From positions 117,096 through 181,095 of IMG/VR virus record IMGVR_UViG_3300045988_135716: 64,000 nt of DNA; one strand, 5' to 3'. Source of the stretch: a virus. The notes beneath the pieces were generated by a model. The model worked only from the letters and a program-made list of their open reading frames with translations. It did no database searches and was not told the DNA's origin. The position numbers and the translations under genes are program-made. This document shows positions 12,349-62,159 of the stretch, in pieces (the stretch's first letter is position 1; each line of letters begins with the position of its first letter).

Positions 12349-12350
12349 AT

Positions 12351-13310: not shown

Positions 13311-13322
13311 AAAGGCGATTAA

Positions 13323-19115: not shown

Positions 19116-21364
19116 TTAAGGTAATCAAGAGAGATGGTCGTAAAGTAGAATTTGATAAATCAAAGATTAAAAATGCTGTTTTGAAGGCTTTTGAGGAAGT
19201 AGATGGTGAAATTACACCAGAAGCAAAAGTAAAAGCTTGTGAAGTTGCAAATTACATTAATTCTTTAAATTATAATCGTATTTCTGTTGAGGAAATTCAA
19301 GATATTGTAGAAGAAAAACTAATGGCTAGTAAACGAAAAGATGTAGCAAAAGCATTTATTATTTATCGTAATAAAAGAACAGAAGCAAGAGAATCAAAAA
19401 CTCAACTTATGAAAGACATTTCTGAAAAACTTATGGCTTCAAATGTTCAAAATCAAAACGCTAATGTCGATGAAAAATCTTTTGGGGGAAGAGTCGGTGA
19501 AGCTAGTGACGCTGTATTAAAAAAATATGCTTTAGATCATTGCATGTCACCTATGGCAAAAGCAAATCATCTCAATAATGAAATTTATACACATGATTTA
19601 GCTGCTTATCCAGTAGGATCACATAACTGTTTAAGTTTGCCAATTGATCAATTAATGGCAAATGGATTTAATACTAGACAAGCAGATGTTCGTCCTGCCA
19701 ATAGCATTAGTACATTTTTTCAACTTCTAGCAGTATTAAAACAGTTACAAAGTTTACAGCAGTTTGGCGGTGTATCTTCTACTCATTTAGATTGGTCTGC
19801 TGTTCCATATGTAAGAAAATCATTTAAAAAACATTTAAAAGATGGGTTTAAATACATTGCCAAAGAAAATAGTTACGTTCAAGAACTTTTAAATTCTGAT
19901 AAAGAAATTTCTATTGATGATTCTTTTATTAAAGAAAATTATCCAAAAGTATATGAATATGCTTATGATATGACTGAAAAAGAAACTAATCAAGCCGTAG
20001 AAGGTATGTATCATAATTTAAACACGTTACAAAGCAGAAGTGGTAATCAGCTTCCTTTTACTTCAATTAATTATGGTACTTGCACATTACCAGAAGGTAG
20101 AATGGTTATAAAAGCACTATTAAATGGCTCGTTAGCAGGTGTAGGTAAGTTGCATAAAACATCTATTTTCCCTTGTGGAATTTTCCAGTGCATGAACGGA
20201 GTAAATAGAAAACTTGGTGATCCAAACTATGATTTATTTCAGTTAGCATTAAAATCTACTGCACAAAGATTATATCCAAACTATGCAAATGTAGATTGGA
20301 GTGGAAATGCAGGATATGATATTAATGATCCAAAAACGTATTTTTCTACAATGGGCTGTAGGACAGCTAATGGATATGATATTAATGGATTTGGACAATT
20401 GAAAGATGGAAGAGGAAACATTTGTCCAGTAACAATCATTATGCCTACGTTGGCAATGGAAGTAAAAGAAGCTTTAGAAATTCCTGACAATGATGGTATG
20501 ACACAGAATGAAAAAGAATCTAATTTAGTCTCGAATTTTATGCTTTTACTTGATGAAAAAATTCACGAAGCTAAAGATATGTTAATTGAACGATTCGATT
20601 GGATTTGTTCTCAATCTCCTGATTCCGCAAAATTCATGTATGAAAATGGAACAATGGCAGGATATATTCCAGAAGAAGGCATTCGTTCTGCATTAAAACA
20701 TGGAACTCTTGCAATTGGACAATTAGGATTAGCAGAAACATTACAAATTCTTATTGGTTGTAATCATACAAAATCAAAAGGAATGGAATTAGCAAAACAT
20801 ATTGAACAGTTATTTAAAGATAGATGTGCCGAATTTAAAGAGCAATATAAATTAAATTTTGGAGTGTACTACACACCAGCCGAAAATTTATGTTTTACAT
20901 CAATGAAGAAATTCAAAGAAAAGTATGGAACTATTAAAAATGTATCTGACAAACAATTCTTTACAAATTCGATTCATGTCCCTGTCTGGGAAAAGGTAAA
21001 TCCATTTGAAAAAATTGATATTGAATCACAATTAACTGGATATAGCAGCGCAGGATGTATCACATATGTTGAGTTAGAGTCTAGTGTTAAGCATAATACC
21101 GAAGCACTAGAAGAAATTGTTAATTACGCTATGGATCACGACATTCCATATTTTGCAATTAATGTGCCAAATGATACATGTATGACTTGTGGATATTGTG
21201 ATGAAATCGGAGATACCTGCCCTATGTGTGGAGGAAAAGATATTAAACGATTACGCAGAGTAACAGGATATTTAACAGGTGATTATAAAACGGCATTTAA
21301 TAACGGCAAAATTGAAGAAGTAGAATTAAGAACTAAACATAGTGACATTAAAAAGGAGCTTTAA
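19112..21364 (+). CDS. nrdD: anaerobic ribonucleoside-triphosphate reductase (class III)
   Basis: It has an N-terminal ATP-cone (VIKRDGRKVEFD), C-terminal Cys4 (CMTCGY..CPMCGG) and a glycyl-radical motif RRVTGYL. Confidence 0.95.
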   Translation: MIKVIKRDGRKVEFDKSKIKNAVLKAFEEVDGEITPEAKVKACEVANYINSLNYNRISVEEIQDIVEEKLMASKRKDVAKAFIIYRNKRTEARESKTQLMKDISEKLMASNVQNQNANVDEKSFGGRVGEASDAVLKKYALDHCMSPMAKANHLNNEIYTHDLAAYPVGSHNCLSLPIDQLMANGFNTRQADVRPANSISTFFQLLAVLKQLQSLQQFGGVSSTHLDWSAVPYVRKSFKKHLKDGFKYIAKENSYVQELLNSDKEISIDDSFIKENYPKVYEYAYDMTEKETNQAVEGMYHNLNTLQSRSGNQLPFTSINYGTCTLPEGRMVIKALLNGSLAGVGKLHKTSIFPCGIFQCMNGVNRKLGDPNYDLFQLALKSTAQRLYPNYANVDWSGNAGYDINDPKTYFSTMGCRTANGYDINGFGQLKDGRGNICPVTIIMPTLAMEVKEALEIPDNDGMTQNEKESNLVSNFMLLLDEKIHEAKDMLIERFDWICSQSPDSAKFMYENGTMAGYIPEEGIRSALKHGTLAIGQLGLAETLQILIGCNHTKSKGMELAKHIEQLFKDRCAEFKEQYKLNFGVYYTPAENLCFTSMKKFKEKYGTIKNVSDKQFFTNSIHVPVWEKVNPFEKIDIESQLTGYSSAGCITYVELESSVKHNTEALEEIVNYAMDHDIPYFAINVPNDTCMTCGYCDEIGDTCPMCGGKDIKRLRRVTGYLTGDYKTAFNNGKIEEVELRTKHSDIKKEL

Positions 21365-44660: not shown

Positions 44661-46255
44661 CATGTGTTACTATATTAAATAAATAAAAAATTGTTCAAGT
44701 TATTTTCAATGCTTTCATTATAAGGAATGCATAATAATGGTATATTATTATCTTCGCAATATTTCTTTTTGATATTATCGTTTTTCACTCTCTTTTTAAA
44801 TCCTTCTTCGCCATTAAAAAATGGAATTGATTCATAATGCTGTTTTCCTTGGAATTCTATACATGCATTATAATCATATAAATAAAAATCAAACGGAAGT
44901 TCTTTGATATTTTTGCAATCAACAAATTTATGTTGTGTATGATATGAAATATTATGTGTATTTAACCATTTAGCTATTTCTCTTTCACCTTTAGATTGAT
45001 GACATTTAGGACATCCCGTATTTCCACCTAAAATACTATATGGAATTACATTCCATTCAAATCCATCTTTTTTACATCTATGTAAAACAGGAGTTGTCAT
45101 ATTAATATATGTCCCAATTAACTCTATATCAGGATTTGTTTTTGCTAATTCTTTAATATACATTTCTTGGTTACGTACTACTGGTCTATTGTCGCATTTT
45201 GGGCATGATGGACGAGCAAGAAAATTTGCTGGTGTAGTATACCATTCATATTCATCTTTTTTGCATTTGAACCAAAGATGCGTATACATATTTTGATATT
45301 CTCCTAAAATAATCATATTTGGATTTAAATTATATACTCGTTTTTCAAATTCTTCGTGAGTAATCTTATTCGCATTTCCCGCTTTCTCATTTCCGCATAA
45401 AGGGCATCCATGTCCTTGCAAAACATTACTTGGAGATACCTTCCATTCTATATTATGTTTTAAACATTTATGTAAAATAGGAGTTTGTACATTAGAATAA
45501 TGTTCGAGAGGAATTATAGAATTAGTGACTTCTTTTAGTTCTGAAATATATTGTGCGTCACTTCTTGTACGATTTTTTTTGAATTTTTCTGTTCTACATA
45601 ATGGGCATCCAACACCTTGTAATGCTCTTGATGGAGTAGTTTCCCAGTTAACATCATGTTTTAAACAATGATGAACGCTTTTGGTATTAGCGTCTATATA
45701 ATCTCCAATAATTTCAACATTAGGATTTTTAATTGAGAGTTCTTGCTTATATTCTTCCAAAGTTTTCTTTCTTCTAATAAAATCACATCCTTTTTTATTT
45801 ATTTGAACAATTTTTATTTATAAAGGTTCGTTAAACCCTATAGATTACTTTTAAAGTAATTTTCTTTGACTTTCATCAAAGTGCAGACCATATTATTCAT
45901 CATGCTTACTAAATTAAAAGTAAGTTTAGATGCTCTCTATTTCGTTCCACTTAGAACTACGAGCATTCCAGCTCTGGTCGTTGAGCCTTCCTCTTTTTGA
46001 GGCTTGGTTGCTGATTTTCTATTTTAAGTAAAATAAAAACACCTAGAACAAACTAGATGTCTTACTTCAATACTTAGGCTTTCACCATATATCATCTATT
46101 TAATTTTTTCTATTTTCATAACATTCACGTTTATGCTTATTTCATCATTACGTTGTAGTCTAAATAGCTTTAAGAATTTTCAGCAGTTAAGAGAGATACA
46201 CTATAAACTTTCGTAATATAGCGGACTATGTTACTAATCTTTTTCACTGTCGAGT
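44661..46255 (-). mobile_element. group I intron (TMP intron 4) carrying a homing-endonuclease ORF
   Basis: R-like element UCAACGACCAGAG with P7 GACCA (45975-79) / UGGUC (45886-90). A P9-like hairpin is CUUUGA-UGAAAG-UCAAAG. The candidate guide sequence UAUAGU-G-UAUC (46195-46205) pairs with both exon ends. Confidence 0.6.
44675..45760 (-). CDS. intron-encoded homing endonuclease: zinc-ribbon repeats + PD-(D/E)XK (Vsr/DUF559-like) C-terminal domain
   Basis: Three repeats of the form NP..E(I/L)IG.Y....T....H.C.KH...W...P...L.G.GCP.C, then LPFDFYL..IEFQGKQHY..D..K..YC..IPY. The listed TTG start lacks an SD; an ATT at 45778 lies 9 nt after AGGA. Confidence 0.65.
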   Translation of the reverse strand: MEEYKQELSIKNPNVEIIGDYIDANTKSVHHCLKHDVNWETTPSRALQGVGCPLCRTEKFKKNRTRSDAQYISELKEVTNSIIPLEHYSNVQTPILHKCLKHNIEWKVSPSNVLQGHGCPLCGNEKAGNANKITHEEFEKRVYNLNPNMIILGEYQNMYTHLWFKCKKDEYEWYTTPANFLARPSCPKCDNRPVVRNQEMYIKELAKTNPDIELIGTYINMTTPVLHRCKKDGFEWNVIPYSILGGNTGCPKCHQSKGEREIAKWLNTHNISYHTQHKFVDCKNIKELPFDFYLYDYNACIEFQGKQHYESIPFFNGEEGFKKRVKNDNIKKKYCEDNNIPLLCIPYNESIENNLNNFLFI

Positions 46256-49200
46256 ACATCAAGATATTTGTCAATCAAATCATCCAAAGCATCCAACTGT
46301 TTATCAATACCGTCCTGAATCAAATCTTTGATAGAGTCTTTTTCATCTTCAGCAGATAAGATGGCTTGTTGCTGTGCGTCAATCAGTTCATTCTTACGGT
46401 CAATGAGTTTCTGATTGTTAGGATCATTCGCAAGTTCCTCGCTGATTTTCAACATTTCTTCCTTATATTTATCTGCTTGCGCCATATAAGTGTTATAGTT
46501 GACACCATGTAATCCCATAGTGGCAAGACCTTGTTCTGTCATATTGCCATCTTTGTCATACATATCCTTATGGCTCATAAGGTCAATAAGGAAATCTGAC
46601 TCACTGGTAATACGACCGATGGCTTCCTGCAACTGGTCAAACTGTTCCCATTTAAGATCACGAATAGATGCTTGGAATTCAACCACTTTGTTTTGTGCTT
46701 CTTTAAGGCTGATCGCAACTTGGTCAATCTCATTCTGCATCTCATAGTATTCTTCCGTACCTTCTTTGATTCCACTATTTGGATCTGCTACTAAATTCGC
46801 AAAGTTACGTTTCATTGCAATATACTTTTGAGACAGATTGTCAACAATTTTCTGTTGCTGTCCAATCTCTGCTTCGTAGAATTTCGTACTCAGATTGTAA
46901 CCCTGTGTCTGCATCCTATCCATGTATGCTTCATACATAGAGTTCCTGTTTTCCCATTGAGAAGTAAAGGAATCATAATAGTTTGCAATATTCTCAAGTT
47001 TCTTCTTTGCATTTTCTACGATAGACTGTGCGTATTCTGCCTGAGATTGTGCCGCTTCGCTTGTTGCTTTATCCAAAGCTTCCTGTTCAATACGAAGTTT
47101 CTTGCTTAAATCCGCAGATTTCTTGACTTTTTCATTATAATCTTGAATCCATTTCAGCACTTTAGGATCAGTGATACCTTTTGTGCTTACTGTTTTACCT
47201 GCCTTTAATGCCTTTTGTTGAGTTTTATTCAACTTAGACATAGCAGATTTATTGTTCAGAATTTTATTCTGAGATTTCGTTTTATTAGCATCAGCAGTAT
47301 CATAGTTGCTTTTTGCTTTCATATAGCTATCACGAGTCTCTTTTAAAGCTGTCTGACGCTGTTTGTTCTGTTCCTTGAGATTCTTAGTTTCCTGTGTAAG
47401 AAGCATATTCTGGTATACATATGATTTCTTACCTTTTGTTGTCGCAAGAATCTGCTGTTCCTTGGTAGAACCTGCATATAACTTCTCTTTATTCTTCTGA
47501 GCCTTAGTCAGATTATCAAGGGCTTTTTCGTCTGCTTTCTTAGCGTTGTCATATACTTTCTGTGCAGAAGCTTTCTCTTTTGCATCAGTGTTATATGCAA
47601 CTGCGGCAGATTTTAATACGCCTGACATTCCAGAAGTCTTAACAGTTTTACCTGCCTTAACCTTGGAAGCAATAGTATTACCTTGTTTTAAAGAACTGTT
47701 ATATGATTTCGCATATTTTAGTGCAGAACCTTTCAGTCCTTTCAAATTTACTGGTTTACCTTCACGGACTGCCTGTGCAATTGCATTATAAGTAGCTTTA
47801 TCGGTACTAGACTTTGCGGCATTTTTCAATTTCTTGCCTATGGATTTTGTCTGTTTCTCACTTGTCTTGATAAGCGTATTCCCTGTAGACTCTGCATCAG
47901 CCGTAGCAGATTTTAAATCCCTGCTTGCTTTAGCACGAGTTTTCTTGGTGACATTTCTGGCAGTTTCAGCCTTATCAAGCTTCTTCTGTGCATTGCCAAG
48001 ACCAGGATTGTCAACTTTAATCTGATTCTGCATTGCTGCGATTGCAGATCCACCCAATGAAACAGTATCAGAAACAGCATTGAGAGATTCAAGTTTAGTC
48101 TTTAATCTGTCAATTTTTTTCTCTGCCTTTTCTGTAGGCATATTTACGATTGTTTCATATAATTCCAGAAGTTTGTTGTTTAACTCCTGTACTGTGTCTT
48201 TACAATCTTGCGCTGAGTTGTAAAATTCTTGAAATTGCTTAATATCTTTTGCTAACTGTTTACCAGAGTCAGAAGATGTGTCAATTTCCTCAATTGAGAA
48301 TGTACCATTGATTACCTTATTCTTATAGTCGTCACTAATATCAACAGAATTAGCTTTATTCATATAAGCAGTATAACCCTGTTCATTCGCCTTGAGTTCT
48401 TTTTCAACTGCTTTGACCTGCCTCTTGAGAAGTACAGTTTTAAAAGCGGAAGATATGTAGTCCGTAATCTGATTAGAGATGCGTTCTACTGCTTTGGAGA
48501 ATTTCTTAAGTTTTGTCTCTACCCAGTTAAAAGTTTCTGTGGAATCAGACTTTGCTTTTGTATTTTTCTCTGTTTCATCTGTATTTCTGGCAACTGCACC
48601 AGAATTGGCGTTATAAGATTGTTGAGATGATGAGCCACCACTGGATGAAACCGATGTTTTATTGGTGTACGGTTGGTCTTGTGAGAATTTAAAACTTCCT
48701 AACCCAAAAGCATTTGAAAGTGAAATATCACTCAGACTTCCTTGAGCATATGCTCTAGCATGACCAGAAGTAGCACCATATTTTAATAAATCCTGTGTCT
48801 GTTTAGCGGAAAAGATAATATCATCTTTTTTCACATTTTCAAAATGTGCTCCACCAGGAATAAGTGACCATACTCCATCACGCACCCTTGATTCCATTCC
48901 AAGTTCATTCATTAATGCAACTTGATCGTGGTCTACAGATATTTTCCCATTTGCATATGCAGGTGAAAAATCAAAATTATCAAGACTACCAAAAGCATAC
49001 GCTCTTGTACGACTAATAGATGTCATTGTACCTGTTGCTTGAGCACCTTTGCCTTTAATATTATTTGTAATATTATTGGTAACATGATTTGATGTAATAG
49101 TAACAGTCTTACTATGAACACCAGCTATAGCACTAACTAAAGCATTAACTGCATCTGTACCACTTACATTTGCTGTAACGTCTACAGATTTACTATTTAC

Positions 49201-52200
49201 ACGCTGAATAGCAGAGTATAAAGCATTGGTTTCTGGCGTACCATTGACGTTTGCCGTTACATCAACAGATTTATTATGTAATTTATTAAGAGCTGCGTCT
49301 AATGCTGTAATTTGTGGCAATCCATTTACAGTTGCCGTAACCGTAACATCTTTGTTCTTATTAGTAATAGCTTCAAATTGGCTATCCTCTAATTTAACAG
49401 TAAGAGGTACTGTTATTTCACCATTCTGAATGGATTGCAATTCTGCTCTAGCTGCATCAACTTGAGAAGTATCAATGTTAAGAGTAGTAGATAAATCCTC
49501 ATCAGTCATGTTAAGAAGAGAACTAATATCTGCTCCTTGTGCTAATGTAGCATTCACCTTAACCTCAACATCTTTATCTTGCAAATAGGAAAGTGCTTCT
49601 TGATAACCAGAATCATCTAACTCAAATTTTGCTCTGAATGTAGCTTCATCATTCTGAGCCATATCCAATAACTCTGATGGAGTTTGTCCATCAGTATCAA
49701 GAGCAACTTTAATCTTATAGTCTGTCTCCGTCTTAGAGATTAAATCATCTAATTCCGCAGATGCTTCTGGATTTACTTCTGCATCAATTTCCGCTTTCAA
49801 CCCATTTAACTCATCAATCTTAGATTTTAATTCATCTGCCGACATATCAGCAGTATCAAAGTCTAATTCAATATCAGAGCTAATATCACCAGAAGACTGT
49901 AAATCTTTAAGAGATTGTACCTTTTCAGAAGTTGTATCAGCAGTTTCGCCTGCTTTTTCAATATCTGAATCATCTACCTCTGGTTTGATAACACCCATTG
50001 CTTCAAGAACTTGACCTAATTGGGATGCTTCATCTTCGCTAAGTCCAAGAGATTGACAAATTGTATCTAACGCTTGTTCCGCAGGTTTTAATTCATCACT
50101 GTCATAAGCACCATCAAATAGGTCGATGCCTTTAACCTGATCAGAAGTAAATCCTTTCAATGTTTCCATTGCGTCAGAAACTTCTTCCTGCCCTTTTTGA
50201 ATTTTTGATACAGTACTATCAAATACTTCTTCTGTAGCAGAATCATCAAACTCAGGTTTAACAGGATTATCAATAGTTGCATTTTTCAACGCTTCTTGAT
50301 ATGCAACAGCAGCTTGCGCAGCTTTTTGACGCATATCATCTAAATCAAATCCATATGTATCAGCATACCCTTGCATTTGTTGGTCAAGATAATTTGCAAC
50401 ACCCATAGCGTTATCTTCACCACCAAATTTCTCAGGATTAGCAAGAACTTCTTTCTTGTAATCATCCATTAATTTAATGGCTTCTTTTGCCGTTTGTTGT
50501 TGCTTATTATACTCATCCGCTTGATGTTCAATATAATATTGCATATTATCAGATAAATCTTCAATATCTTGACTATATGCTTTTACTTCATCTCTTTGTG
50601 CTTGAATCCTAACATCACTATATTCTGATGGATTTTCTTCCATCTCTTTTAGTTTTGCTTTGGAATCTGCCAATTTCGTATAAGCATCACCAAGTTTTAA
50701 TACACCGTCTTGAACATCATCAACGGTATTATCATGAAGTCCGTAGTCTTGCATTTTCCCAAATGCTGCACTAGCAACATCTGTACCAGTAGCGAGAGCT
50801 TCGGCTGCTTCGGCTGCATTATGAGCCTTAATTGTCCACTCGCCAGTTTGCTGATTAAATTCTGCTAAATCATGTGATTTAAGGTCATTAAGGAAGTTCT
50901 TAACACCCTCATCACCTTCTTTCAAATATCTATTTGCTTTAGCGTAGTTCTCAGCAAAATCCGCAGGATCAGTAGCACCAGTAGGAGAAATCATGGCAGC
51001 AAAAGACTTAAATGAATCTGTACCTGTCAATCCATCTTGAAAATCTTTATATGCTTGTTCAAGTCCACTAACAATATTATTGTATGGTGTACCTGCTGTC
51101 TCTTTGGAACTATTCAGTACCCATTGATTATAGTCGGAAAACATATCCTTCATTTGCTGATATTGAGCATTATACTGAGATTGTGCCTGTTCAATACCTG
51201 CTATATCAGACAAGATTTGTTTCTGCTTATCTCTAGCTGAATTTTTCTCATCTTCTGATTTTGTAACATCATCAATGATTTTTTGCTGTTCTTGATAAGC
51301 TTCATTTTGAAGCCTGATGGACTTAGCAAAATCTTCAACTTTCATATCACGCTGTTTCTTGATAAGAGTTTTTACAGCGTCAGAGTTCATTGTCACGCCT
51401 TCTGCTGTATCTCTAAAAATACCATCAAGACTTGCATCTTTGAATGCATCATTCTCACTAACTAACGATGAAAGCGCAGTTTTAACCGCTGTTATGGAAT
51501 CTGCTGTCATTCCTGTGTTTGACATAGATTCTGACATTGCAGTTGAGAGAGAGGAGTATGCAGTAGTAGTATCGGTTACTACTTGTTTCATATTCTCAAG
51601 AGTGAGACGAGATGTGTCTTGGACATTTTGAATCTGAGCAACCATTTGTTCAAATGATTGTCCATCATATTGTGTATCGGACAGCATTGTACCAAGAGTT
51701 TCTAAATCCGCAATACTTAAATCTCTTGATTTAATACCTGTTGTATCGTTCCATCTTTCGGCAACTTTTGTTTGAATATCATGAAGATTTTGCCATTGAT
51801 CTGCAATACCAGATGCTTGCCGCATTTGTTCACGTGAAAAACTTTTACTTTTTTCACTAGCTTTATCAAGAGTTTCATCTGCTTCTTTTTGCCACGAATC
51901 AAATGATTGTTTAGAACTATCATCATTTATTGTAAATACATCATTTAATGCATCTTGAATGTCTTTATTTTGCAGTTCTTTTACAGCGGATTGACTCCAA
52001 GATTTTAATTTACTAATTGCTTTATCACCAGTAAACCCATTTTTCTCTAAATCTTCATATGAAAAAGAATTTATTAATGATGTAAGTTCACTGTCTATAC
52101 TTGGAACATCATCTAATAAATTTTGATAAGCTCGTTGTTCTTGAAAGAATGCAGGAATATAACTTTTTAATTCATCAGCAGAGTTTTCGCGTTGATTTCT

Positions 52201-53304
52201 TAAAGATTCTTGTGATCCAATAATAGTATTAAGGAAATCATTAGTATCGCTATTAGCTTTAAGTTTCCCTTGTGAGTCGTTTAATTCATTTATTAATTTA
52301 CCGAAGTCTTTTACACTAACTCCTGCATTATCAAGTGCGTCTACGAAATTACCATCATCTAACCATTGGTTTAAATCTAAAAATTTGTTACCACCTTTGC
52401 TTTTAAAAGCGTTTTCATATGCAGATTGGAATTTTTCCAATGATTGTAGCTGTTGGTCTGTACCTGCTTCCTCCCAAAACCAATTTTTATCTTGGTTAAC
52501 TTCCGCATTTAATTTGTCGATTACATCTTTAGCATTTTTAACACTTTCAGTATATTGATTGACTTTTTGTGTTTTAAGAGTAGCTTTTAATGTATCAACA
52601 TCTGTTGCAGCTTTAATAATCGGTTTTCCTAGTGAATCATATCCTGATACCAATTCTGGAAATTGTGTTGCAATCTGAGATGCCAATTCTTGATATTCAG
52701 CATATTCTTCATTTGTTAATCCAAGATTTGTTCCTAAAGAACTCACGCCTTTTGAAAGAGTAGTATATTTTTCGCCATTTGTTTCAATCCAGGAAGAGGA
52801 TTGAGCCATCTGCTCATTTATATCTTTATAATTCTGGATTACTTCATCGCCAGATTCAATTGCACGTTCTTGTTTATTAGATACATAGTCAAATGCTGTG
52901 GCAATACCTTGAATTGCGGCAGAAACAGCAAGATTAGCCCCAATGTTAATTGCTGATGCCTTAAATACTGAACCAACATCTTTTAATCCAGTTTTAAACG
53001 CATCCCATTTGCTTGTAACAACAGGAACTGTTCCACCTTGGCGTTGAATTGCCGCCGTTAAATTTTCAGTACTTGAAAGTGCTGCCTTATCAACATTATT
53101 CTTTTGATCTAATTCGTGAATATAATTACCAATATAAGCACCATATGTTCTTTTAAAATCATTTGATGCATTTGCATCTCTCAGAACAGCATCAACATTA
53201 GGAGCATTTCCTGCTCTGTATTGAGAAGCCATCAAACCCGACACTGTTTTAAGCGTATTATTCGTTGCAATTTTATTTTGCATATTAGCAATTGATTGAG
53301 CTAC
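46256..53304 (-). CDS. tail tape-measure protein, exon 4 (main coiled-coil body)
   Basis: 2349-aa ORF rich in coiled-coil sequence and Ala/Gln/Lys repeats. There is no SD before its ATG (53283), and the frame opens at 53304. Confidence 0.75.
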
Positions 53305-53336
53305 CTACGATTTTTATATACTTGGGATGTATATTG

Positions 53337-53345
53337 TGCTATAAT
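53337..53345 (+). promoter_or_regulatory. extended -10 promoter (TGcTATAAT) for the plus-strand cargo genes
   Basis: TGCTATAAT at 53337-53345, about 40 nt upstream of ATG 53387. No good -35 element is present. Confidence 0.45.
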
Positions 53346-53386
53346 GCATAAATGAAATTACTATAAACAAAGTGAGAGATAGTTGT

Positions 53387-53728
53387 ATGGGAGTTATAAT
53401 ATTTTTAATTATTTTATTCGTATTGAAATTACTAGCGGATGGATCATTGGATTTTATTTATCCTATTATAATGGGTATATTAGCCATTATTTGTCCAATA
53501 GTGAGTTGTATATTACTTTATGATGGTGGACGTGAAATATTATTATCGTGCGCATTCCTGATTTTGATTACAATAGCAGAATTTATAACAGTAATATTTT
53601 TATCATCTAAATTTATTCTTACATCGAATGCTAAAAAGAATAGAAGAGTAATTGGATATATTCTAATTATTACCTCTGTATTGTGTATTTTACTAATTAT
53701 GATTCGTTGTTTAATGATACTATTATAA
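53387..53728 (+). CDS. small 4-TM membrane protein
   Basis: 113 aa from ATG 53387 (the listed ORF starts at GTG 53372). It has four hydrophobic segments. Confidence 0.55.
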   Translation: MGVIIFLIILFVLKLLADGSLDFIYPIIMGILAIICPIVSCILLYDGGREILLSCAFLILITIAEFITVIFLSSKFILTSNAKKNRRVIGYILIITSVLCILLIMIRCLMILL

Positions 53729-53745
53729 ACGAAGGAGATTTACAT

Positions 53746-54597
53746 ATGATACCAGAATATATACAAAACATTATTTTAAGATATGACAAAGAGGTTTGCA
53801 ATGAAATATCTGCCATAAATCTTGCTATTGAAAGAATAAAAGATTCTCTCAAAGTAATAAATGAAGTTATCTCGTCAGATTTATTTTCATATATGAAAAG
53901 CGATAAAATTTTTGATAAGGAAAAAGAAAATCAATTACTACAAGATGCTCAAACTTTAAGAGAATTTATATCTTCAATTGATAATATTCATGAGTCTAAA
54001 GTAGTTAAAAAATCTCAGATGATAACTTTCCATAAAAACTTATCTATACAAGACATCATCGTGTTAAAAACTACTCAAAAATGTAAACATGAAAGCCATG
54101 AGATGCAAGATGTAATAGCTAAAATTCCTGTTTTATATGATACGTGTGATGTTCAATGCTTAGATGTTCAATTGGCATATTGTAAAACATGTGGTAAATA
54201 TTATATGTTGAAATCTGATTTTGACATGATTAGTGGAATAATATTATGCCAAGTTGTCGATCAAACAACTAACAGCACAAATAGCCAGGATGATAATTTT
54301 ATAGCATTACAAAAACAATCTGTTCTTTATCGGTGCGGATATACAGTAAGCAGTCAAAGAAAATTATCAGCAGAAGCTAGACGTATTATTCTTTGCTCAG
54401 TAATTGAATCTCGTTTAATGACAAAATTGGAAATTAAAGATCACCTTAATATGCTTATTGAACGTGGAAGTAAAATTCCATCGTGGGAGAACGCAGTTGT
54501 AAAATGGAAGTTTGATAAAAAATTTATAAATGATTATCAACAAGAAAATGTTCCGCAAATTGTATACGAAAAGATTGTATTAAAATATAAAAAATAA
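53746..54597 (+). CDS. hypothetical protein with helical N-terminus, Cys-cluster (Zn-ribbon-like) centre and conserved-looking C-terminal domain
   Basis: ATG 53746 lies 8 nt after AAGGAG. Contains KCKHESHE..CDVQC..YCKTCGKYY. The C-terminus is LYRCGYTVSS..LSAEARRIIL..W..AVVKWKFDKKFI. Confidence 0.55.
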   Translation: MIPEYIQNIILRYDKEVCNEISAINLAIERIKDSLKVINEVISSDLFSYMKSDKIFDKEKENQLLQDAQTLREFISSIDNIHESKVVKKSQMITFHKNLSIQDIIVLKTTQKCKHESHEMQDVIAKIPVLYDTCDVQCLDVQLAYCKTCGKYYMLKSDFDMISGIILCQVVDQTTNSTNSQDDNFIALQKQSVLYRCGYTVSSQRKLSAEARRIILCSVIESRLMTKLEIKDHLNMLIERGSKIPSWENAVVKWKFDKKFINDYQQENVPQIVYEKIVLKYKK

Positions 54598-54652
54598 AAA
54601 TTGTGGTTATAAATAGGAACATTATTTGTAGGTGTTTGTTAGGCAATAAAAG

Positions 54653-54679
54653 TGGTGACTAAGTTTAACTTAGTCACCA
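54653..54679 (+). terminator. stem-loop terminator after the plus-strand cargo genes
   Basis: 11-bp stem TGGTGACTAAG / CTTAGTCACCA with a 5-nt loop. Confidence 0.5.
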
Positions 54680-54771
54680 TAAATTATGTTTATATATTGT
54701 CGTTGTAAGTCTTCGAGCCTAGAAGATTATATAAAATGAAAGAGCCTAGCCAAATCTACTAGACTCTTTCG

Positions 54772-54855
54772 CAATTAAGTTTTGTTGCCAATTAGGTTTT
54801 ACTTCCAATTATCTTTAAAGCTCAATTAAGTTTTAAATCAATTATCTGTAATTGA
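54772..54855. repeat. five tandem ~17-bp iteron-like repeats (CAATTAnnTTT..)
   Basis: Unit starts are at 54772, 54789, 54806, 54823 and 54839, giving spacings of 17, 17, 17 and 16. Confidence 0.6.
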
Positions 54856-55569
54856 TACTATATCATATCACAATATGATTGTCAACTATTAATTATAAAA
54901 TTCTTTTCATTTTCCCTTTTGATGATATTTTCATCTTCCATTTTGGAAATTATATCTTGAATAAATTGCTTTGGTAAAAATAATTTTTCACATAATCCAT
55001 CTCTAAGCCAATTATATCCAAGTTGTTTTCCATTATTTTTCGGATCATTATGCCAGTCAATAATAAATTGTTTGACCGAATTATACCAGTATTCAAGGTT
55101 TAACCTTTCTGAATCTATTTTAAATAATTTGATTAAATCACAAGAAAAGTCACAATATGAATTAAAATGAGTGGTTTGTGACACATTTGAACTTGTATAA
55201 TATAAATGAATTTTTTTACCTTTATATTTTAATCTACTCATAACTGGTATCATATCACTATCAGAAGTCACAATAACATATGTATCTATATTAGATTCTC
55301 TATGAGTCATTTCAATAGCATCCATACTTAATTCAATATCTGATGCATTTTTCCTATATTTATCATCTTTATTATTTCCATAAACATTTCTAATCTGTAC
55401 ACGTTGTTCCTGTAAATTCCTTAAACTTACATCTACTTGTTCAAAATCTGCATATGCTCTAAAAGTTCTTATTCTATCTTTCCCGTACATTATATTTATA
55501 AATTTACAAAAGTTATATTCATCACTAGAAACATTTATACCATATTTTTTCATACTATGATATAAATTA

Positions 55570-56681
55570 ACTTGTTGTGCTAGATAAAATAAAATATAAA
55601 GAAACTTCAACAAAATATGCTATCCTTTTTGTAGGGAATACAACGAAAGGAGGCATCATTATGTTGAAGTTCCAAGATAATAATACCACTGTTATTGCAA
55701 CTTTTGAAGACTTTATTTTAACTGCTTACGTTATTATTGACGAATTGTATCATCAGTTTGCACCTCCAGAAGTTACCAGACGACGGCATATCCTGAATGC
55801 AAAATTATCTGACTCAGAAATCATTACTATCAGTCTCTGCGGAGAATTGGCAGGCGTTGATTCTGAGAATGCATGGTTTTCTTTTGTGAAACGAAACTAC
55901 AGGCATCTTTTTCCGCAGCTTTGCAGCAGAAGTCGTTTTAACAGAACGAGACGCGCCCTGATGCAGACAACAGAATTGTTACGACAAAAAATGATTTCCG
56001 TATTCCCAATTCCAGTCAGTTCCTATTACATCGTCGATAGTTTTCCACTTGCAGTCTGTAAATTTGGACGTGCACGATATTGTAAAGCATTTCGTGGCCA
56101 TGGTGCTGATTATGGAAAATGTCCTTCCAAAAAAGAAACCTATTATGGATATAAAGTACATGCATTAATTACATTAGAAGGATACATTGCATCATTTGAG
56201 ATCACACCGGCATCTACAGATGATCGTGAAGGATTACGTGATCTGGCAGACCATTGGTCTAATGTTACAATTTTAGCGGATAAAGGCTATGTTGGAAAAA
56301 ACATGAAACAGGAAATGCAGGAAAAAAATATCTGTCTTTTTGCTCTGAAACGTTCCAACAGTAAGGAAAATTGGCCGAAATCCGTACGTCAGTTAATATT
56401 CAAACTGAGAAGGCGGGTAGAAACCGTATTCTCTCAATTGAGTGGTCAGTTAAATGCAGAAAGAGTGTTAGCCAAAAGCTTTCAGGGGTTATGTACCCGT
56501 CTGGTTAATAAAGTACTGGCATACAATCTCTGTATTGCATTGAATAGTATTTTCGGTGAAACCTGTGAACTTGGAAAAATCAAAAAATTGATATTCTAAA
56601 AATTTTATTTTTTAATATCTGTAAGGATTCTTTGCGGTTTTACAGGTTTTCACATAATCTATTTGAAGTAGCACAATAGGT
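55570..56681 (+). mobile_element. IS982-family insertion sequence (1112 bp)
   Basis: Terminal inverted repeats are ACTTGTTGTGCTAG and the reverse complement ACCTATTGTGCTAC. It is flanked by a 7-bp direct repeat TAAATTA (55563-55569 and 56682-56688). Confidence 0.8.
55661..56599 (+). CDS. IS982-family DDE transposase
   Basis: ATG 55661 follows AAAGGAGG. Contains DSFPLAVCKFGRARYCKAFRGHGADYGKCPSKKETYYGYKVHALITLEGYI..TPASTDDRE..ILADKGY. Confidence 0.8.
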   Translation: MLKFQDNNTTVIATFEDFILTAYVIIDELYHQFAPPEVTRRRHILNAKLSDSEIITISLCGELAGVDSENAWFSFVKRNYRHLFPQLCSRSRFNRTRRALMQTTELLRQKMISVFPIPVSSYYIVDSFPLAVCKFGRARYCKAFRGHGADYGKCPSKKETYYGYKVHALITLEGYIASFEITPASTDDREGLRDLADHWSNVTILADKGYVGKNMKQEMQEKNICLFALKRSNSKENWPKSVRQLIFKLRRRVETVFSQLSGQLNAERVLAKSFQGLCTRLVNKVLAYNLCIALNSIFGETCELGKIKKLIF

Positions 56682-57596
56682 TAAATTATCATAATCTACT
56701 AAAATACATACATTTGTACATTTTCTAACTACATCTTTTACTGAATCTAATTCATTGCTATCAAAAATATCCCCATTCATTAAAATATTTCCCTCTTTCG
56801 TATAATTATTTGGTAAAATTTACCATAACACTATTATACGACAGAGTACGACAATCTACAATTCAGAACATATATTCTAAATCTACGATTATGCTAATAA
56901 TCATGTTGATTATGCAATTTAAAAATGTTTCATCATTCATATGATATAATATTTCCTATAATATTAATAGGAGAGTGATATAAGTATGTATGAGAAAATA
57001 TGCAAAATTTTAATTTATATATGTATGATTATTGCGTTACTTTGTTTAATTGGAACGACGTATATTACATACAAATATTAATTTTGGTTGTATCATTAAT
57101 TCTATATTTGCAATATTTATATATGTCGATACAACCATATATAAATAATTCCCAACTGCTGATGGAAGAGTAGTATATAGAAACTATCCCTGAATTTATC
57201 GGGCATCCATCTTCCCTATCGCTAGAGTGCATTTTTATGATTCTATATAGAACCATACTTTCGTTACGCTCGTTGAGGTCGGCATCCATTATAATGAAGC
57301 CCTACCTGCGGATTACTTCGTAGTTTGGATTGTTACTATACCGCATCCTTTCGGATTTGCCACTTATATCTATTAAATATAAGTTTAGTACCAAACTCAT
57401 GTGACATAGCCTTTTGAACTATGAAAGTTTCCCGTTCTGAAATTCAATACAGAAGAGTAGCGCATTACCGCTAACTCCATTTTAGAAAGTCACCAGAGAG
57501 TCCTTGCTTATAAATAAGCTCGTACACATTACTGCTAAACTCTCAAGCGGCATAAGTCATTTTGAAAAATGCATGGGGCGAATCCCATGTACTCTT

Positions 57597-57957
57597 ACCG
57601 CTGTTGTTTTTACCTTGAAAAATACCTAATCCAAGTGCCATAACATTAGGCAAATTAACAAGCTTGCTATCTGATTTTGCAAGTTTTGTCATTACACCTA
57701 AAGCTTTTGTACCAGTATCTACAATACCTTTAAACATATCGGAACTAATTGCACTGGTAGAAAAATCTTGAAATTGTGCCTTCAAATGAGAGAGAGAAGC
57801 TTCAATACCTTTATTCCAAGATTCAAGTTCTCTTTCACCTGATCCATCTGCATCATTTAATGCAGTTTGAAGAGATTTTCGAGCAACGTCAAAATTGGTC
57901 ATGAGGGAGGAAACAATATTACCCTGGCGTTTGCCCGCTATAAGTTCTGTTAAACTT
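57597..57957 (-). CDS. tail tape-measure protein, exon 3
   Basis: Encodes (A)SLTELIAGKRQGNIVSSLMTNFD... The listed ORF 57543..57902 is its read-through form. There is no SD. Confidence 0.65.
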
Positions 57958-58010
57958 CATTATTTCTTTATACGATTCGCAACATCGTATGTGTTATTAA
58001 AATTTTATAA

Positions 58011-59432
58011 TTATATTTCTTTTATAATGTTTAATTCTACAAATTTGTCAAATAAAAAAGAATCAACGTTTTCAAATTCTGTATAAGGAATACGAATCAA
58101 ATTAATTCCATTTTTATTGCAATACTCATTTTTCATTGCATCATGTTTTTGTGTATATTTTAATTTTTCTATAGCATCTTCTTTGGTTTGAGATCCATGT
58201 GAAACAGGATAAAAATGTTGTTCTCCATCATATTCAACAATAGTATTAAAATCTGTTAAATAACAATCAAACGGTAAAACATTTTTATCTTTACAATCAT
58301 CAAATGTCTTACCTCTTTCTATTTTATATCCCCAGGATTCGATTAAAGCACAAACATATTCTTCTTTATATGTTACTCTAGTTTTGCTACAACAATTTAG
58401 TCTAGTCATTACGTTAGCCCATGTTGATTCAAATTCATAATTATGCTCATTACATCTGAATTTAGTTTTAGAAGATGAGTTTATATATTCTCCAATAATA
58501 TCGACTTGTGGATGGACATTATGTAGCAACTCTGTTGCTTTTTCAAATGAATAAGCAAAAACTTCTCTTTTTCTTTCTAATAAGCATTCATCGCAACCAC
58601 TAACTTCATTTTCTTCACGAAGCATTACGGATAAAGTCTTTTTAAATTCTTTTTTATGCTTTTCACAAAACCAAATTGAATTAGAATTATGAATACCTAA
58701 ATATTTTACTACTTTAATATGATCAAATTTTTTATTAATCCTGCTTTGGACTTCTTCATCTGTCATGAAATGTTGTTCACTTAATTTTTCCGCACCACAG
58801 TATTTACATCCTTCACCTTTTAAAATATCTTGCATTGATTTATATGTTTCTTCATTATGTTTTAAGCATAAACATTTCATTGAAGTTGTCATGTTTGTAT
58901 ATGGTTCTAATAATTTTATATTTGGATTAACTTCTTCTTTTTTCTTCATTACATACCATTCTGGGAGTGGCAATCCATTGCAATAAGCGCATCCATCTTT
59001 TGCTTTATTTAAAACAAACCATCTATATTTTGTTTGTATACCAAGTTCTTTATGTTTATCACAAGTATATAAAATCATTAATTTCCCATTAATTCTTTTT
59101 GTGGTAATATAATTTAATCCCATTGATTCGATTTTTTTCTTATCGGACTCATAATCAATTTCAATCTTTCTACTTGATTCGGTTTTCTCACGTCCGCAAT
59201 AATAGCATCCCCTATTATTATAATACAAATGAGCAAAATCAATAGTTTGTTCTCCTTTATCTTCGTGTTTTGGACAAATATATCTTAACTTTGATTTCGT
59301 ATTTACATATTCATTTTCTGATGAAAGTAATTTGTATCCATGTTTTTCAAATTCATTTTTAACAAATTCAAAATCATATTTTGATTTTCCTTTAGTTGGA
59401 GAGATATATTTTATTTTCTTATTCTGACTCAT
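58011..59432 (-). CDS. intron-encoded homing endonuclease: zinc-ribbon repeats + PD-(D/E)XK (Vsr/DUF559-like) C-terminal domain
   Basis: 473 aa, with ATG after AGGTGA. It has four to five Cys-pair repeat modules and the C-terminus LPFDCYL..VEYDGEQHF..D..K..YC..L.RIPY, paralogous to ORF 44675..45760. Confidence 0.65.
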   Translation of the reverse strand: MSQNKKIKYISPTKGKSKYDFEFVKNEFEKHGYKLLSSENEYVNTKSKLRYICPKHEDKGEQTIDFAHLYYNNRGCYYCGREKTESSRKIEIDYESDKKKIESMGLNYITTKRINGKLMILYTCDKHKELGIQTKYRWFVLNKAKDGCAYCNGLPLPEWYVMKKKEEVNPNIKLLEPYTNMTTSMKCLCLKHNEETYKSMQDILKGEGCKYCGAEKLSEQHFMTDEEVQSRINKKFDHIKVVKYLGIHNSNSIWFCEKHKKEFKKTLSVMLREENEVSGCDECLLERKREVFAYSFEKATELLHNVHPQVDIIGEYINSSSKTKFRCNEHNYEFESTWANVMTRLNCCSKTRVTYKEEYVCALIESWGYKIERGKTFDDCKDKNVLPFDCYLTDFNTIVEYDGEQHFYPVSHGSQTKEDAIEKLKYTQKHDAMKNEYCNKNGINLIRIPYTEFENVDSFLFDKFVELNIIKEI

Positions 59433-59464
59433 TTTTTATCACCTATTATTTATCCTTTCTGTAA

Positions 59465-59638
59465 TTATTTCTCCATATAAAAAGACACCAGAGCTTTAAA
59501 TAAGTCTGATGTCTTCGTATATTTATATGTAGTTATTCCATTTATTTCTTTTACAAAAGAGTAGTTAATACCTTTTGATTGAAGATATTTCATTTCTGGT
59601 ACATATTGTGTACTATATTCTTTATCAAATTTTTTCAT
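59465..59638 (-). CDS. small intron-borne ORF (57 aa)
   Basis: ATG 59638 follows AAGGA. The product is MKKFDKEYSTQYVPEMKYLQSKGINYSFVKEINGITTYKYTKTSDLFKALVSFYMEK. It falls below the ORF-track cut-off. Confidence 0.4.
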   Translation of the reverse strand: MKKFDKEYSTQYVPEMKYLQSKGINYSFVKEINGITTYKYTKTSDLFKALVSFYMEK

Positions 59639-60059
59639 ATATTATCCTTTTATAATTTCAATAACACCTCATACTTTCATATGAGTTGCGACTATTTCTT
59701 AACCACATCCATAATGGATAGCAGTCACACCTTTTCGTTTTATAGGATTTTCACCTGCGCCTTTGCGATTGCGCCCTACGACTATTGCTATAAATATTCA
59801 GGATTTCCACCTTTATTTTTATTTTATAGCCCTACATGGGTCTAGTCTGTGAACGTTTTCCCTCGACTTAACTAACATCTGATAAATGTATAACGTTAGG
59901 GAACTTCGCTGCATGAACAACCATTGTTATATCTCTGTGTTTTCAAACCGTCATAATCTAGTTTCCTGATTATTGTGGTACAGAGCTTTAGGTATTACCT
60001 GCAATTAAATGTGTTCTAAATATATATTTCTATATATTCAGGCAAGTTTTAAGAATTTT

Positions 60060-60272
60060 GCCTGCTGAATATCTGTTAAATCTTGCCACTTAGTAGATAA
60101 TTCATCGAGAATATCATATGTAGATTTAAACTCATTTTCGTTTTTCATAATATCCACACCACTAAGAGCCATAACTTCTTGTCTTAGTTTTGCGGTAGAT
60201 TCTGCCATACCTTCGGTGTCAAGACCTGCCTTTTCCATGTCTGTTGACGCACCTCTGATACGCATTGAAATT
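60060..60272 (-). CDS. tail tape-measure protein, exon 2
   Basis: Encodes ISMRIRGASTDMEKAGLDTEGMAESTAKLRQEV..WQDLTDIQQA, a TP901-type TMP core. The flanking residues in listed ORF 60038..60301 come from intron read-through. Confidence 0.7.
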
Positions 60273-60795
60273 CCTTGTATTTTAATATGATCGCAACTCA
60301 TATTACTTTATATAAAAATAAAGCTCATGGCTTCCCATGAGAGTAGACTATTTCTTAACCACGTTTTATGAATAAAACAGCAGTCACACCTTTTCGTTTA
60401 AAGGTATTTAACCAACGCCATTTGCTTGCGTCCTACGAGTATTGACTTAGATATTCGAGATTTCCACTCTTATTTTATAATCTAATTAGATATTTCTAAG
60501 TCCCGACATGGCTCTAGTCGTTGAACCTTTACCCTCGACTCAAGTACCGTATGATCTACGGAATACGTTAGGGTACTTGGTTGCATGAACAGTGATTCCT
60601 AATTTATACAAAATTAGTAAATATGATATTTAGGTTTTTGACCATGTATCATCCTTACGTTGTTTCTGCTTTCGCCCCATCATAGTGTGATTATCTCCAC
60701 TATTGTGGTGTAAGGCTTTACACTTTACCTGCTTAGTATTAAATGTGTTCAACTACGCACATTTCTGTACGTAAAGACAATTTCGATAAAATTTT
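60273..60795 (-). mobile_element. ORF-less group I intron (TMP intron 1, 523 nt)
   Basis: R element GGUUCAACGACUAGAGCC (60510-27). S element AAGAAAUAGUC with P7 GACUA (60515-19) / UAGUC (60345-49). The P9 hairpin is at 60323-40. The guide sequence is GAAAUU-G-UCUU (60774-84). Confidence 0.7.
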
Positions 60796-62159
60796 GTCTT
60801 GAAGGCAGTGCCTACAGAATCTGGATCTTGTACTACACTATTTGCTGCCGTAATTAAGGCTACAGTTTCTTCAAATGTGTTGTTTGCAGCTTTCATTGAT
60901 GAAGCTGATCGAGTTAAACCATCAAAAATACCTGCCGTATCAATCGGTTCAGTATTCGCAACCTCATTTACAACATCAACTACTTTGGTTACTTCATCAG
61001 CATTCATTTGGAATCCTTTTAATGTAGAAATTAATCCACTAGATGCGGATTCCTGTGTCATATTATCTCCTACTTTTTGTAATAGAGATGTAGCGTCTGA
61101 TAATTTTTTGGCATCATCTAATTTATAACCTAGTCTTGACCAATCAGCGGTACTACTAATAACATCACTAATTGTCGATCCATATTTTGTTGCGCTTTGA
61201 GCTGCTTCATCCCAGTATTGCGATAATTGTGTACCAGAAGCATTACTAACTTTTGTTAATTCAATCTGTGCTGCATTTACATCTTTAACAGCAGAAATTG
61301 CTTCTGTTGGAAGTTGAACCATAACTCGTTGCAAGCCAGCATAAATTCCAGTAAACTGAGCAATTTGTCCAAGCGCACGTTTCGTTTCACTCCAAGTAGA
61401 ATTACCACTTAATCCTTCCGCTTGGATTCTTGCTTTTAAATTTGTAAATGCCTTATCATAACTAGCTTTTTCCTCAACAGTTGTCATTGAACGATATTGT
61501 TGTTCTAGTTCTTTCAGTTCCGCTCCATATTTCTTAACTGCTTTAGAATTTGCATTCATATATGAAACAACTTTATTTCCAGATGCACTAGCGATAGATG
61601 GAGATAGTGCTTTTGACGATTCGTCTCTAATTTGAGACAAAGTATTCTTAAAAGTATCTCCTGCTTTAGTCATATCTTGAAAAGTTTGTTGTAACTGTTT
61701 TTTACCTAAAACATTTGATCCATTGTAATGATTTTGAAGTTTATCTAAAGCCTGATTATATGAAGCTAGAGCCGCTGTAGCCTTTTGAATATTTGCAGTA
61801 TCTTGAGTTCCATATGCCCCTAATTGTTTGCTCATTCTGGATGATGCGGCTGCATATTTTCCTGTGTCAATATTATATTTTAATTTATTTGTAGGGTATC
61901 TGTTTGAATTGTTGTTCCTACTAGGATTGTTATTTCTAGGTAAATTATTATTCGGTATATTTGGGGTAGGCATACCTTTAAGCATATTTTGAACTTGTTT
62001 AATTTGATTTATCAAATTGGTAAGTTGCTTTTGCCCTTTAACCTGAAAGTTAAGAGATACAGGTTTATTTTGCATTTTATTTAATTTTTGTTCAAGCTCA
62101 TTAACTTTTTCCGCACCATGAGTAACAACATTTACGTCAACTTGAAATTGCGCTCCCAT
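60796..62159 (-). CDS. tail tape-measure protein, exon 1 (N-terminal, TP901-type)
   Basis: ATG 62159 follows AAAGGAG. It ends ..AANSVVQDPDSVGTAFK(T). The last 13 residues of listed ORF 60753..62159 come from intron read-through. Confidence 0.8.

Follow-up and report, generated by a model that had tools for sequence, protein, structure and literature searches.

A candidate group I intron with a variable accessory-gene loop in a phage tape measure gene

Introduction

The closest known systems to the element considered here are the IStrons, among them CdISt1 of Clostridioides difficile and BcISt1 (PMC4227781, PMC3984707). In an IStron the insertion sequence (IS) component always lies downstream of P9.2, in the 3' terminal stem-loop, and element size ranges from 482 to 2582 nt (PMC4227781). 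Bacterial group I introns have been reviewed as either lacking an open reading frame (ORF) or encoding an endonuclease, with the IStron as a unique composite (PMC3984707). Here we analyze a segment that interrupts the tape measure protein (TMP) gene of a ~170-kb gut phage, using a 64,000-nt stretch of viral DNA (IMG/VR record IMGVR_UViG_3300045988_135716, positions 117,096 to 181,095; hereafter the window) that is colinear with the 176-kb gut phage MT835469. We suggest that this segment, at window positions 57596..53305, is a group I-type intron whose accessory-gene loop is closed by a short "cargo stem", a reading that rests on comparative sequence analysis and to which we give a probability of roughly three in four. 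The element resembles an IStron or an endonuclease intron in how it would work, yet it lacks the cargo feature that defines each of them.

An earlier note on this DNA had proposed that the segment might be an intron that ferries accessory genes, and its description of the locus is accurate in detail: all of the features it described lie where it had placed them, including the UCAACGA sequence, and a GAAA loop is present. The proposal itself appears largely sustained by a start-less exon 4, conserved junctions and an uninterrupted homologue.

Results

Layout of the interrupted gene

The TMP gene is encoded on the minus strand and is present in the window as four pieces. Exon 1 (62159..60796) and exon 2 (60272..60060) match positions 2-140 and 151-197, respectively, of the Pfam PhageMin_Tail profile. 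Exon 3 (57597..57957, minus strand) does not open with a start codon and finishes with ...GGUAAAAACAACAGCGGU (GIFQGKNNSG), the final codons being AAC AGC GGU and the last base 57597; its last 30 nt are conserved even in lineages where the upstream exon sequence has diverged. The third intervening sequence, our proposed intron 3 (53305..57596, minus strand, 4292 nt), starts AAGAGUAC and ends UCGUAG. Its 5' part (57596..~57150) is ORF-poor, with a GC content of 0.37-0.40 versus 0.24-0.30 in the gene-bearing cargo. Exon 4 (46234..53304, minus strand) is open from GUA GCU CAA... right after the in-frame UAG that terminates the intron. An ATG is found 21 nt into this exon, at 53283, and no GGAGG-like motif precedes it, in agreement with the earlier remark that exon 4 has no Shine-Dalgarno sequence.

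The same arrangement was found in 27 viral contigs, in one metagenome-assembled genome (MAG) and in two more contigs from metagenomes. A search with a 29-nt motif from the core brought up 26 IMG/VR contigs, and one with a degenerate exon motif brought up 27, every one of which (27/27) carries intron 3. A third, more distant lineage (L034 and L035, with a core 74% identical) was reached through a homologue of the 283-aa cargo protein described below. When the core was compared by blastn with 50,697 phage records, MT835469 was the sole match, and a scan of a genome collection with a pattern for the Q region gave one true copy, in a Lachnoclostridium-binned MAG; four other matches to this pattern, all in GC-rich coding DNA, were set aside as chance.

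Evidence that the segment is an intervening sequence

The boundaries of the segment are the same throughout this set. The 5' junction GGU^RAGAGUAC (the caret marks the splice site) is conserved, with each copy preceded by ...(A/G)GCGGU, and UCGUAG^ forms the 3' end in all 16 complete copies compared, so that the terminal guanosine (omega G) of group I introns is present. These ends stay alike in 16 complete loci while intron length ranges from 2403 to 7939 nt.

Exon 4 itself is only 25-30% identical among lineages. Four of its five types (B, C, D and L034) have AUA... straight after the in-frame TAG and no ATG for dozens of codons, their translations beginning IFNSIGNYK..., IINGIKGYR..., ILNSIQNYK... 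and IFNSILSFQ.... Exon 4 is therefore untranslatable alone in most lineages, which argues that the segment must leave the RNA. The reading phase across intron 3 is 0 in every lineage, and two homologues, the uninterrupted protein P0026 (33% identity) and a protein of C. difficile phage AR1086-1 (26% identity), align colinearly through the exon 3/4 junction. In the relative L005, exons 1-3 are continuous as a single ORF of 864 aa, whose end is again the GGU^ junction, and intron 2 is missing from L003, L006 and L007; the TMP pieces are therefore parts of one gene.

A group I-type fold in the first ~440 nt

Helices were assigned by hand with the help of RNAalifold. Their pairs were then tallied on an ordinary MAFFT alignment of 14 distinct sequences from three subtypes, which had not been adjusted to the structure; in the intron numbering used here, nt 1 is window position 57596. 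Standard pairs occupy 96.5% of cells, compared with 38-45% when the partner strands are slid by 1-3 columns. Both sides of the pair change in 26 of 130 pairs, against 3-6 in the slid controls and 12.1 +/- 2.3 in shuffled alignments, none of which (0/500) reaches 26, and the covariation score is 0.170 as opposed to 0.03-0.06 in the slid controls. MAFFT offsets the P3 region by one base, and P3 is under-counted in this tally.

P1 (57546..57602, minus strand) pairs the exon sequence AGCGGU (57602-57597) together with A1 to UGCCGCU, that is, exon -6..+1 with 45-51, and encloses the hairpins P1.1, P1a and P1b. Its U.G pair, which lies at the 5' splice site, is invariant in 14/14 aligned sequences. 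The outermost pair, A-U in the window, is G-C in L034/L035. It is difficult to see why exon and intron should covary in this way unless the intron strand is a guide sequence, and the P1 proposed in the earlier note is thereby confirmed. A P10 of 3-4 bp between RUA(G/A) of exon 4 and U45-A44-U43-U42 is possible in every lineage, which fits the 4-bp P10 claimed there.

P2 (57496..57544) is formed by GAGAGUUU/GGACUCUC, 53-60 with 94-101, and its inner hairpin, P2b, shows a C-G to U-A change. P3 (57257..57490) joins ACUUUC (57490-57485) to GAAAGU (57262-57257), 107-112 with 335-340; on hand re-alignment, CUUUC/GAAAG becomes CAUUC/GAAUG in L034. The two hairpins inserted between P3 and P4, at 57477-57455 (120-142) and 57454-57435 (143-162), are fully rewritten in L034 and still pair. 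P4 is CGGG/UCCG, 163-166 with 285-288, within the P and Q elements AACGGGAAAC and AAUCCGCAGG; a first P4 candidate, GCGG (253-256) with CCGC, was abandoned since it is disrupted in the L005 type and CGGG/UCCG suits the P/Q consensus. These two elements and the J6/7-type CAACGA before P7 resemble what we take to be the group I consensus, a likeness treated as a lead only. P5 carries a branched extension tipped by the GAAA loop, with at least five double changes, and P6 likewise falls within P3; double changes are numerous both in the P3-enclosed hairpins and in the P5 extension.

J6/7, CAAC, lies just upstream of P7 (57225..57271), where GAGCGUA/UGCACUC, 326-332 with 366-372, forms a pseudoknot with P3 and encloses P3' and P8. 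In the L005 type a G-C pair of P7 is replaced by A-U and a C.A mismatch by U-A. P8 (57256-57237, 341-348 with 353-360) varies from C-G to A-U or U-A, and P9 (57161..57211; GAUGGA/UCCAUC, 386-391 with 431-436), which contains inner hairpins, from A-U to U-A in L034. A sequence that looks like an S element, GGGAAGAUGGAUGCCC, is the 5' strand of P9 and not P7'. The resulting order, P3-[P4-P5-P6]-P7-P3'-P8-P7' followed by P9, is the topology of a group I core, and P1 also has the group I form.

Other kinds of intervening element fit poorly. By inspection, the segment lacks the GUGYG 5' end, domain V-like hairpin and AY 3' end of a group II intron, and the Rfam group II models gave no match on it in 19-kb, 3.9-kb or 501-nt scans. 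An intein is dismissed by the stop codons within the segment. On the other strand Rfam returned a 'Gut-1' match of 24.8 bits, well short of its gathering score of 50, which we discounted as chance.

A stem that closes the gene-bearing loop

Seven nucleotides after P9, the sequence UUGGGA (57149..57154, minus strand) pairs with UCCCAA (53319..53324, minus strand), which lies 14 nt before the 3' splice site, its C-run beginning 20 nt before the terminal G. Equivalents of this stem are found in all five 3'-end types, with predicted energies of -8 to -16 kcal/mol (RNAduplex). Its length is 6-10 bp over the lineages: 6 bp in the window, 7 bp in type D and 10 bp in type B (GUUGGGAAUU/AAUUCCCAAU). 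In L034 the strands are UUUGGA-CGC and GCG-U-UCCAAA, a G-C to U-A covariation. Because the stem pairs the end of the core with a segment near the 3' end, the gene-bearing stretch forms a hairpin loop and the terminal G would lie only ~20 nt from the core. In the window this giant terminal loop, the distance between the stem strands, spans 3.8 kb, and among the copies it spans 2-7.5 kb.

A conserved element, TGCAAAT(A/T)TAGAA (window 57112..57100, minus strand), occurs 45-60 nt after the 5' strand of the stem in each of the three intron subtypes, with equivalents in L005 and L034. Its sole exact copy in the 64-kb window is this one, and it may be a regulatory site for sense-strand cargo.

A variable accessory-gene island

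The 19 complete copies in viral contigs reduce to 14 distinct intron sequences, and with L034 and L035 make up 16 versions. Between close relatives the intron is alike over its initial ~715-795 nt and its final ~450-520 nt and differs in the middle. The genes found there lie on both strands, in two convergent units. They include an NYN RNase gene in the window and L032, DUF3800 and 114-aa protein genes in the MT835469 type, and in one version a gene for an AIPR/AbiU-like protein (PADLOC E=3e-22). The cargo also encodes a BRO-N/KilAC antirepressor, a GNAT acetyltransferase, proteins with double zinc ribbons, a lipoprotein and several membrane proteins, in addition to many orphans. In none of the cargo versions was a homing endonuclease (LAGLIDADG, GIY-YIG, HNH, His-Cys or PD-(D/E)xK) recognised, consistent with the earlier judgement that the cassette is not of this kind. 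Likewise, TnpA or TnpB of the IS200/IS605 or IS607 type was found in none of the cargo proteins, the lone transposase being that of a secondary IS982-like insertion in the window.

In the window loop the two convergent transcription units have promoter motifs of their own and a common central terminator. On the sense strand, a promoter-like TTGTAG-17-TATAAT (56832..56866, minus strand), read from the sequence and below the threshold of the promoter scanner, is conserved upstream of differing first sense-strand genes in the window, L004 and L005. The NYN RNase gene that follows is split. Its 5' fragment (56640..56780, minus strand) has an AGAGGG Shine-Dalgarno sequence and retains the first 33 codons, which run into out-of-frame IS sequence; its 3' fragment (54882..55569, minus strand) matches PF01936 (E=2e-17). 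The earlier note had correctly identified an NYN-domain gene with its own Shine-Dalgarno sequence and did not mention the split. Responsible for it is a 1112-bp IS982-like element (55570..56681, plus strand) with a DDE transposase ORF at 55577-56599 (PF13612/PF01609), 13-nt imperfect inverted repeats ACTTGTTGTGCTA/ACCTATTGTGCTA and a 7-bp target duplication, TAAATTA. The intact 259-aa NYN gene of L032 fixes the insertion point exactly. We found no second copy of the element in the window and no match to it in the PLSDB plasmids. A terminator-like hairpin lies 3' of the NYN gene on the TMP strand (54738..54770, minus strand).

The plus-strand unit has the extended -10 promoter motif TGCTATAAT (53337..53345, plus strand), and a bidirectional terminator (54652..54680) separates it from the opposing unit; a promoter and a terminator had been noted at just these places. 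Its first gene (53387..53728, plus strand) encodes a 113-aa protein with four hydrophobic stretches and no family match; translation from a GTG at 53372 would lengthen it to 118 aa. The second (53746..54597, plus strand, within the listed ORF 53683-54597) encodes a 283-aa orphan protein in which the motif C113/H118/C146/C149 is invariant and the C-terminal domain is highly conserved. Its structure is predicted with confidence (predicted local distance difference test score, pLDDT, 77): a coiled coil at the N terminus is followed by a zinc-type beta domain, which contains the invariant motif, and by the C-terminal domain, which is helical. Its relatives are few, 19 among 5.8 billion proteins, and none has a name; Pfam, PADLOC and PHROGs gave no match, and Foldseek against the PDB and BFVD gave no significant fold match. 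The profile searches identified the NYN protein, and no Pfam, PADLOC, PHROG or fold match assigns a function to the other two. The membrane and 283-aa pair has no match in PADLOC, where the NYN matches are weak (E 1e-3 to 5e-3). A role of this pair in abortive infection or exclusion is a guess.

The earlier note had treated the three proteins as one module, and here the comparison does not bear it out. The NYN gene is unlinked, occurring in 2/16 versions, one of them without the membrane and 283-aa genes; only the membrane and 283-aa pairing recurs. A 283-aa family gene adjoins a small membrane protein gene in the window, the L005 type and L037-39. Elsewhere the 283-aa gene follows lipoprotein (L004) or zinc-ribbon protein (L034) genes, and four versions have the window-type membrane gene but not the 283-aa gene. 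A looser association of these two genes is therefore supported by their sequence neighbourhoods, with NYN independent of both. The cargo is better described as a variable accessory-gene island, whose content in the window is an orphan pair (membrane and zinc-motif proteins) and an NYN gene disrupted by an IS.

The pair is also seen outside any TMP gene. L037 (4572..5873), L038 and L039 encode adjacent 125-aa membrane and 290-aa 283-family proteins, the membrane protein 89% identical to that of L005, and neighbouring genes with ArdC-N/MPTase, HTH and YbjQ domains.

Further interruptions of tape measure genes

The other two intervening sequences of the window TMP gene, intron 1 (60795..60273) and intron 2 (60059..57958), both on the minus strand, have cores ~72% alike. 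In each the last exon base is apparently C and not U (...AAGAC^A with guide GUCUU, and ...CAGGC^A with guide GCCUG). Intron 2 contains a 473-aa ORF for a zinc-finger/Vsr-like endonuclease. Of the two introns, intron 1 alone matches RF00028, and weakly. Intron 1 is ORF-less in the window and gains a 379-aa zinc-finger/Vsr-like ORF in MT835469 and L006. In L003 there is one more insert, 1.3 kb long (12257..13573, at the counterpart of window ~60810). It is situated 15 nt upstream of where intron 1 is inserted and encodes a 314-aa zinc-finger/Vsr-like protein, so that as many as four introns can be present in the TMP gene of this phage group.

Two other TMP homologues may also be interrupted. In C. 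difficile phage AR1086-1 (L002, 3748..12144) the homologue is annotated as ORFs of 627 and 2070 aa, 300 nt apart; this gap is near the position of the window exon 2/3 junction and may be a further interruption. A prophage of Ruminococcus sp. GCA_041405285.1 (L046, 11900..12650) has a TMP homologue with 62% identity over exon 3 that comes to a stop codon at the corresponding point (...GIKIFKNLD*). Beyond it lie ~700 nt of GC-richer DNA with no ORF, and after these a set of small genes in both orientations. This segment has no sequence similarity to the intron 3 core and may be an analogous but unrelated interruption.

Hints to the host are few. Window positions 20353..21330 match, at 77% identity, the gene for anaerobic ribonucleotide reductase in the Thomasclavelia ramosa phages TR-TP1 and TR-TP2, and this match and the binning of one intron-bearing contig with Lachnoclostridium point weakly to Firmicutes.

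Discussion

A model for the expression of the gene

We suggest the following sequence of events. Late transcription of the TMP gene would pass through the loop, and the cargo stem and P10 would place the 3' splice site, bringing the terminal G and exon 4 beside the core. The two usual transesterifications would then join ...GKNNSG to VAQSIANMQNK..., restoring a TMP of ~3000 aa. The predicted ligated RNA is ...AACAGCGGU^GUAGCUCAA, and the predicted junction-spanning peptide is NNSGVAQSIANMQNK. The genes of the loop would meanwhile be expressed from their own promoters as accessory genes, some of them plausibly with anti-phage or exclusion functions, and new cassettes would arrive by recombination between the conserved arms. 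Passage of the terminators within the loop could be achieved by read-through, by antitermination or by assembly of two RNAs in trans, each of which would serve; among these solutions we rate splicing in cis the likeliest. The TMP is probably functional.

Points that weigh against an intron

Four observations weigh against this reading. First, Rfam RF00028 gave no match on the core at E<=10 in 19-kb, 3.9-kb or 501-nt searches. The earlier note had counted the lack of a ribozyme-model hit against an intron, and RF00028 indeed finds nothing. We give this miss little weight, because the model gives intron 1 of this TMP gene no more than 24.3 bits (gathering score 50), and that only in a 561-nt search, which suggests that RF00028 is insensitive to this lineage. 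Second, the two hairpins between P3 and P4 are non-canonical, canonical group I introns having a 3-nt joiner at this place. Third, no empty site or intron-less allele was found in close relatives (the 27 contigs with the exon motif), and for this reason we infer precise excision rather than observe it. Fourth, the loop contains at least one terminator-like hairpin on the TMP strand in all 16 versions (54770-54738 and 54679-54653 in the window), so that a continuous pre-mRNA needs read-through or antitermination. On balance, the comparative structure outweighs the RF00028 miss, and on that evidence the first ~440 nt is a group I-type ribozyme core.

Alternative explanations

The terminator-like hairpins would be accommodated by a split intron, in which an RNA with exons 1-3 and the ribozyme ends in the loop, exon 4 and the 3' tail are transcribed from a separate promoter, and the two are joined through the cargo stem and spliced in trans. 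The presence of such sense-strand hairpins in 16/16 versions, a conserved stem of 6-10 bp capable of intermolecular pairing and loops of up to 7.5 kb are all in keeping with this arrangement. However, no conserved TMP-strand promoter was identified upstream of the 3' tail, where the matches are at the level expected by chance in AT-rich DNA, and two separate RNAs would be poorly held together by a stem of 6 bp. Intrinsic terminators are, moreover, leaky, and resistance to terminators is common in phage late transcription. We know of no phage group I intron that is spliced in trans, and consider this explanation unlikely.

We consider it still less probable that the segment is a decayed relic that no longer splices, leaving the TMP broken and this copy defective, perhaps made worse by the IS. 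The extra 1.1-kb IS in the window loop, the lack of an endonuclease and the lack of a known empty site would be expected of such a relic, but the IS is deep in the loop and far from the stem, all exons are intact, and the core differs by only 2-4% from its relatives with no helix-breaking change. Compensatory evolution over three subtypes, moreover, indicates selection on the fold. The broken TMP and defective prophage that the earlier note had held out as the alternative to an intron are thus unlikely.

It is very improbable that splicing does not occur at all and that the TMP is two polypeptides flanking a moron island and a 440-nt RNA with another role, as a regulator or RNA gene: such an arrangement would suit the ATG 21 nt into window exon 4, the treatment of the pieces as separate genes by gene callers, and the 17 codons by which exon 3 runs on to a stop, whose peptide (K/E)STWDSPHAFFK(M/T)TYAA is conserved, but four other lineages lack a start codon near the 5' end of exon 4, the window exon 4 lacks a Shine-Dalgarno sequence, the guide sequence and the six exon bases before the junction covary, the terminal G and UCGUAG motif are invariant, and conservation of the run-on peptide is explained by the RNA because it coincides with the P1 hairpins.

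Implications

If intron 3 is a group I-type intron as we propose, self-splicing introns would be protected landing pads for accessory genes and not only selfish elements. Gene callers split such TMP genes, so that the structural gene and the island would both be misread. The loop contents would be candidate phage-encoded exclusion or defence genes, mostly orphans, and a small ribozyme that tolerates at least 7.5 kb in one loop would be of interest for RNA engineering. More tentatively, and with some doubt, the loop might be a safe harbour dedicated to genes for anti-phage defence, exclusion and host takeover, which recombination could exchange. Because of splicing, insertion at this site would carry no cost, and the conserved sequences on either side, the ribozyme arm and the 3' tail, would serve as homology arms between co-infecting phages. 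Full-length TMP might then depend on read-through or on stem-mediated assembly of two RNAs, coupling tail synthesis to regulation.

Comparison with known systems

A full-text literature search, incomplete in its coverage, gave no description of a group I intron that carries cargo or defence genes or that interrupts a tape measure gene. The likeness to IStrons is in architecture: a group I ribozyme at the 5' end, foreign DNA in the 3' terminal stem-loop after P9, and a 3' splice site on a short tail beyond the stem. Both are insertions into a coding gene that splicing renders harmless, although for intron 3 the splicing is deduced from sequence, and both have a Firmicutes or phage setting. In contrast to an IStron, the cargo of intron 3 is not an IS200/IS605 or IS607 transposon and has neither TnpA nor TnpB. 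IStrons are 0.5-2.6 kb in size with forward-strand ORFs, whereas the loops seen here are 2-7.5 kb, with genes on both strands and with their own promoters and terminators. The gene set here differs in nearly every copy, and all copies are at one site in one gene rather than dispersed. The peripheral helices also differ, as P7.1 and P7.2 are not seen in intron 3, which has the two hairpins between P3 and P4.

With the T4 td, nrdB and nrdD (sunY) introns, and with introns 1 and 2 of the same TMP gene, intron 3 shares a group I architecture, ORFs in a peripheral loop and a location in a conserved stretch of an essential phage gene. In the nrdD intron the core is followed by a long, ORF-bearing 3' tail and a remote 3' splice site. 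Unlike that of the endonuclease introns, the cargo of intron 3 is multigenic, bidirectional and variable, is not translated from the intron RNA, and includes no recognised endonuclease.

Hot spots for moron and defence genes in phages and their satellites, such as those of P2 and P4, consist of conserved flanks around quickly exchanged, independently transcribed genes. The intron 3 loop likewise has conserved flanks around exchanged genes for nucleases, Abi-like proteins and membrane proteins. The known hot spots, however, are located between genes, whereas the intron 3 island interrupts the coding region of a structural gene that is essential, where its tolerance would depend on RNA splicing.

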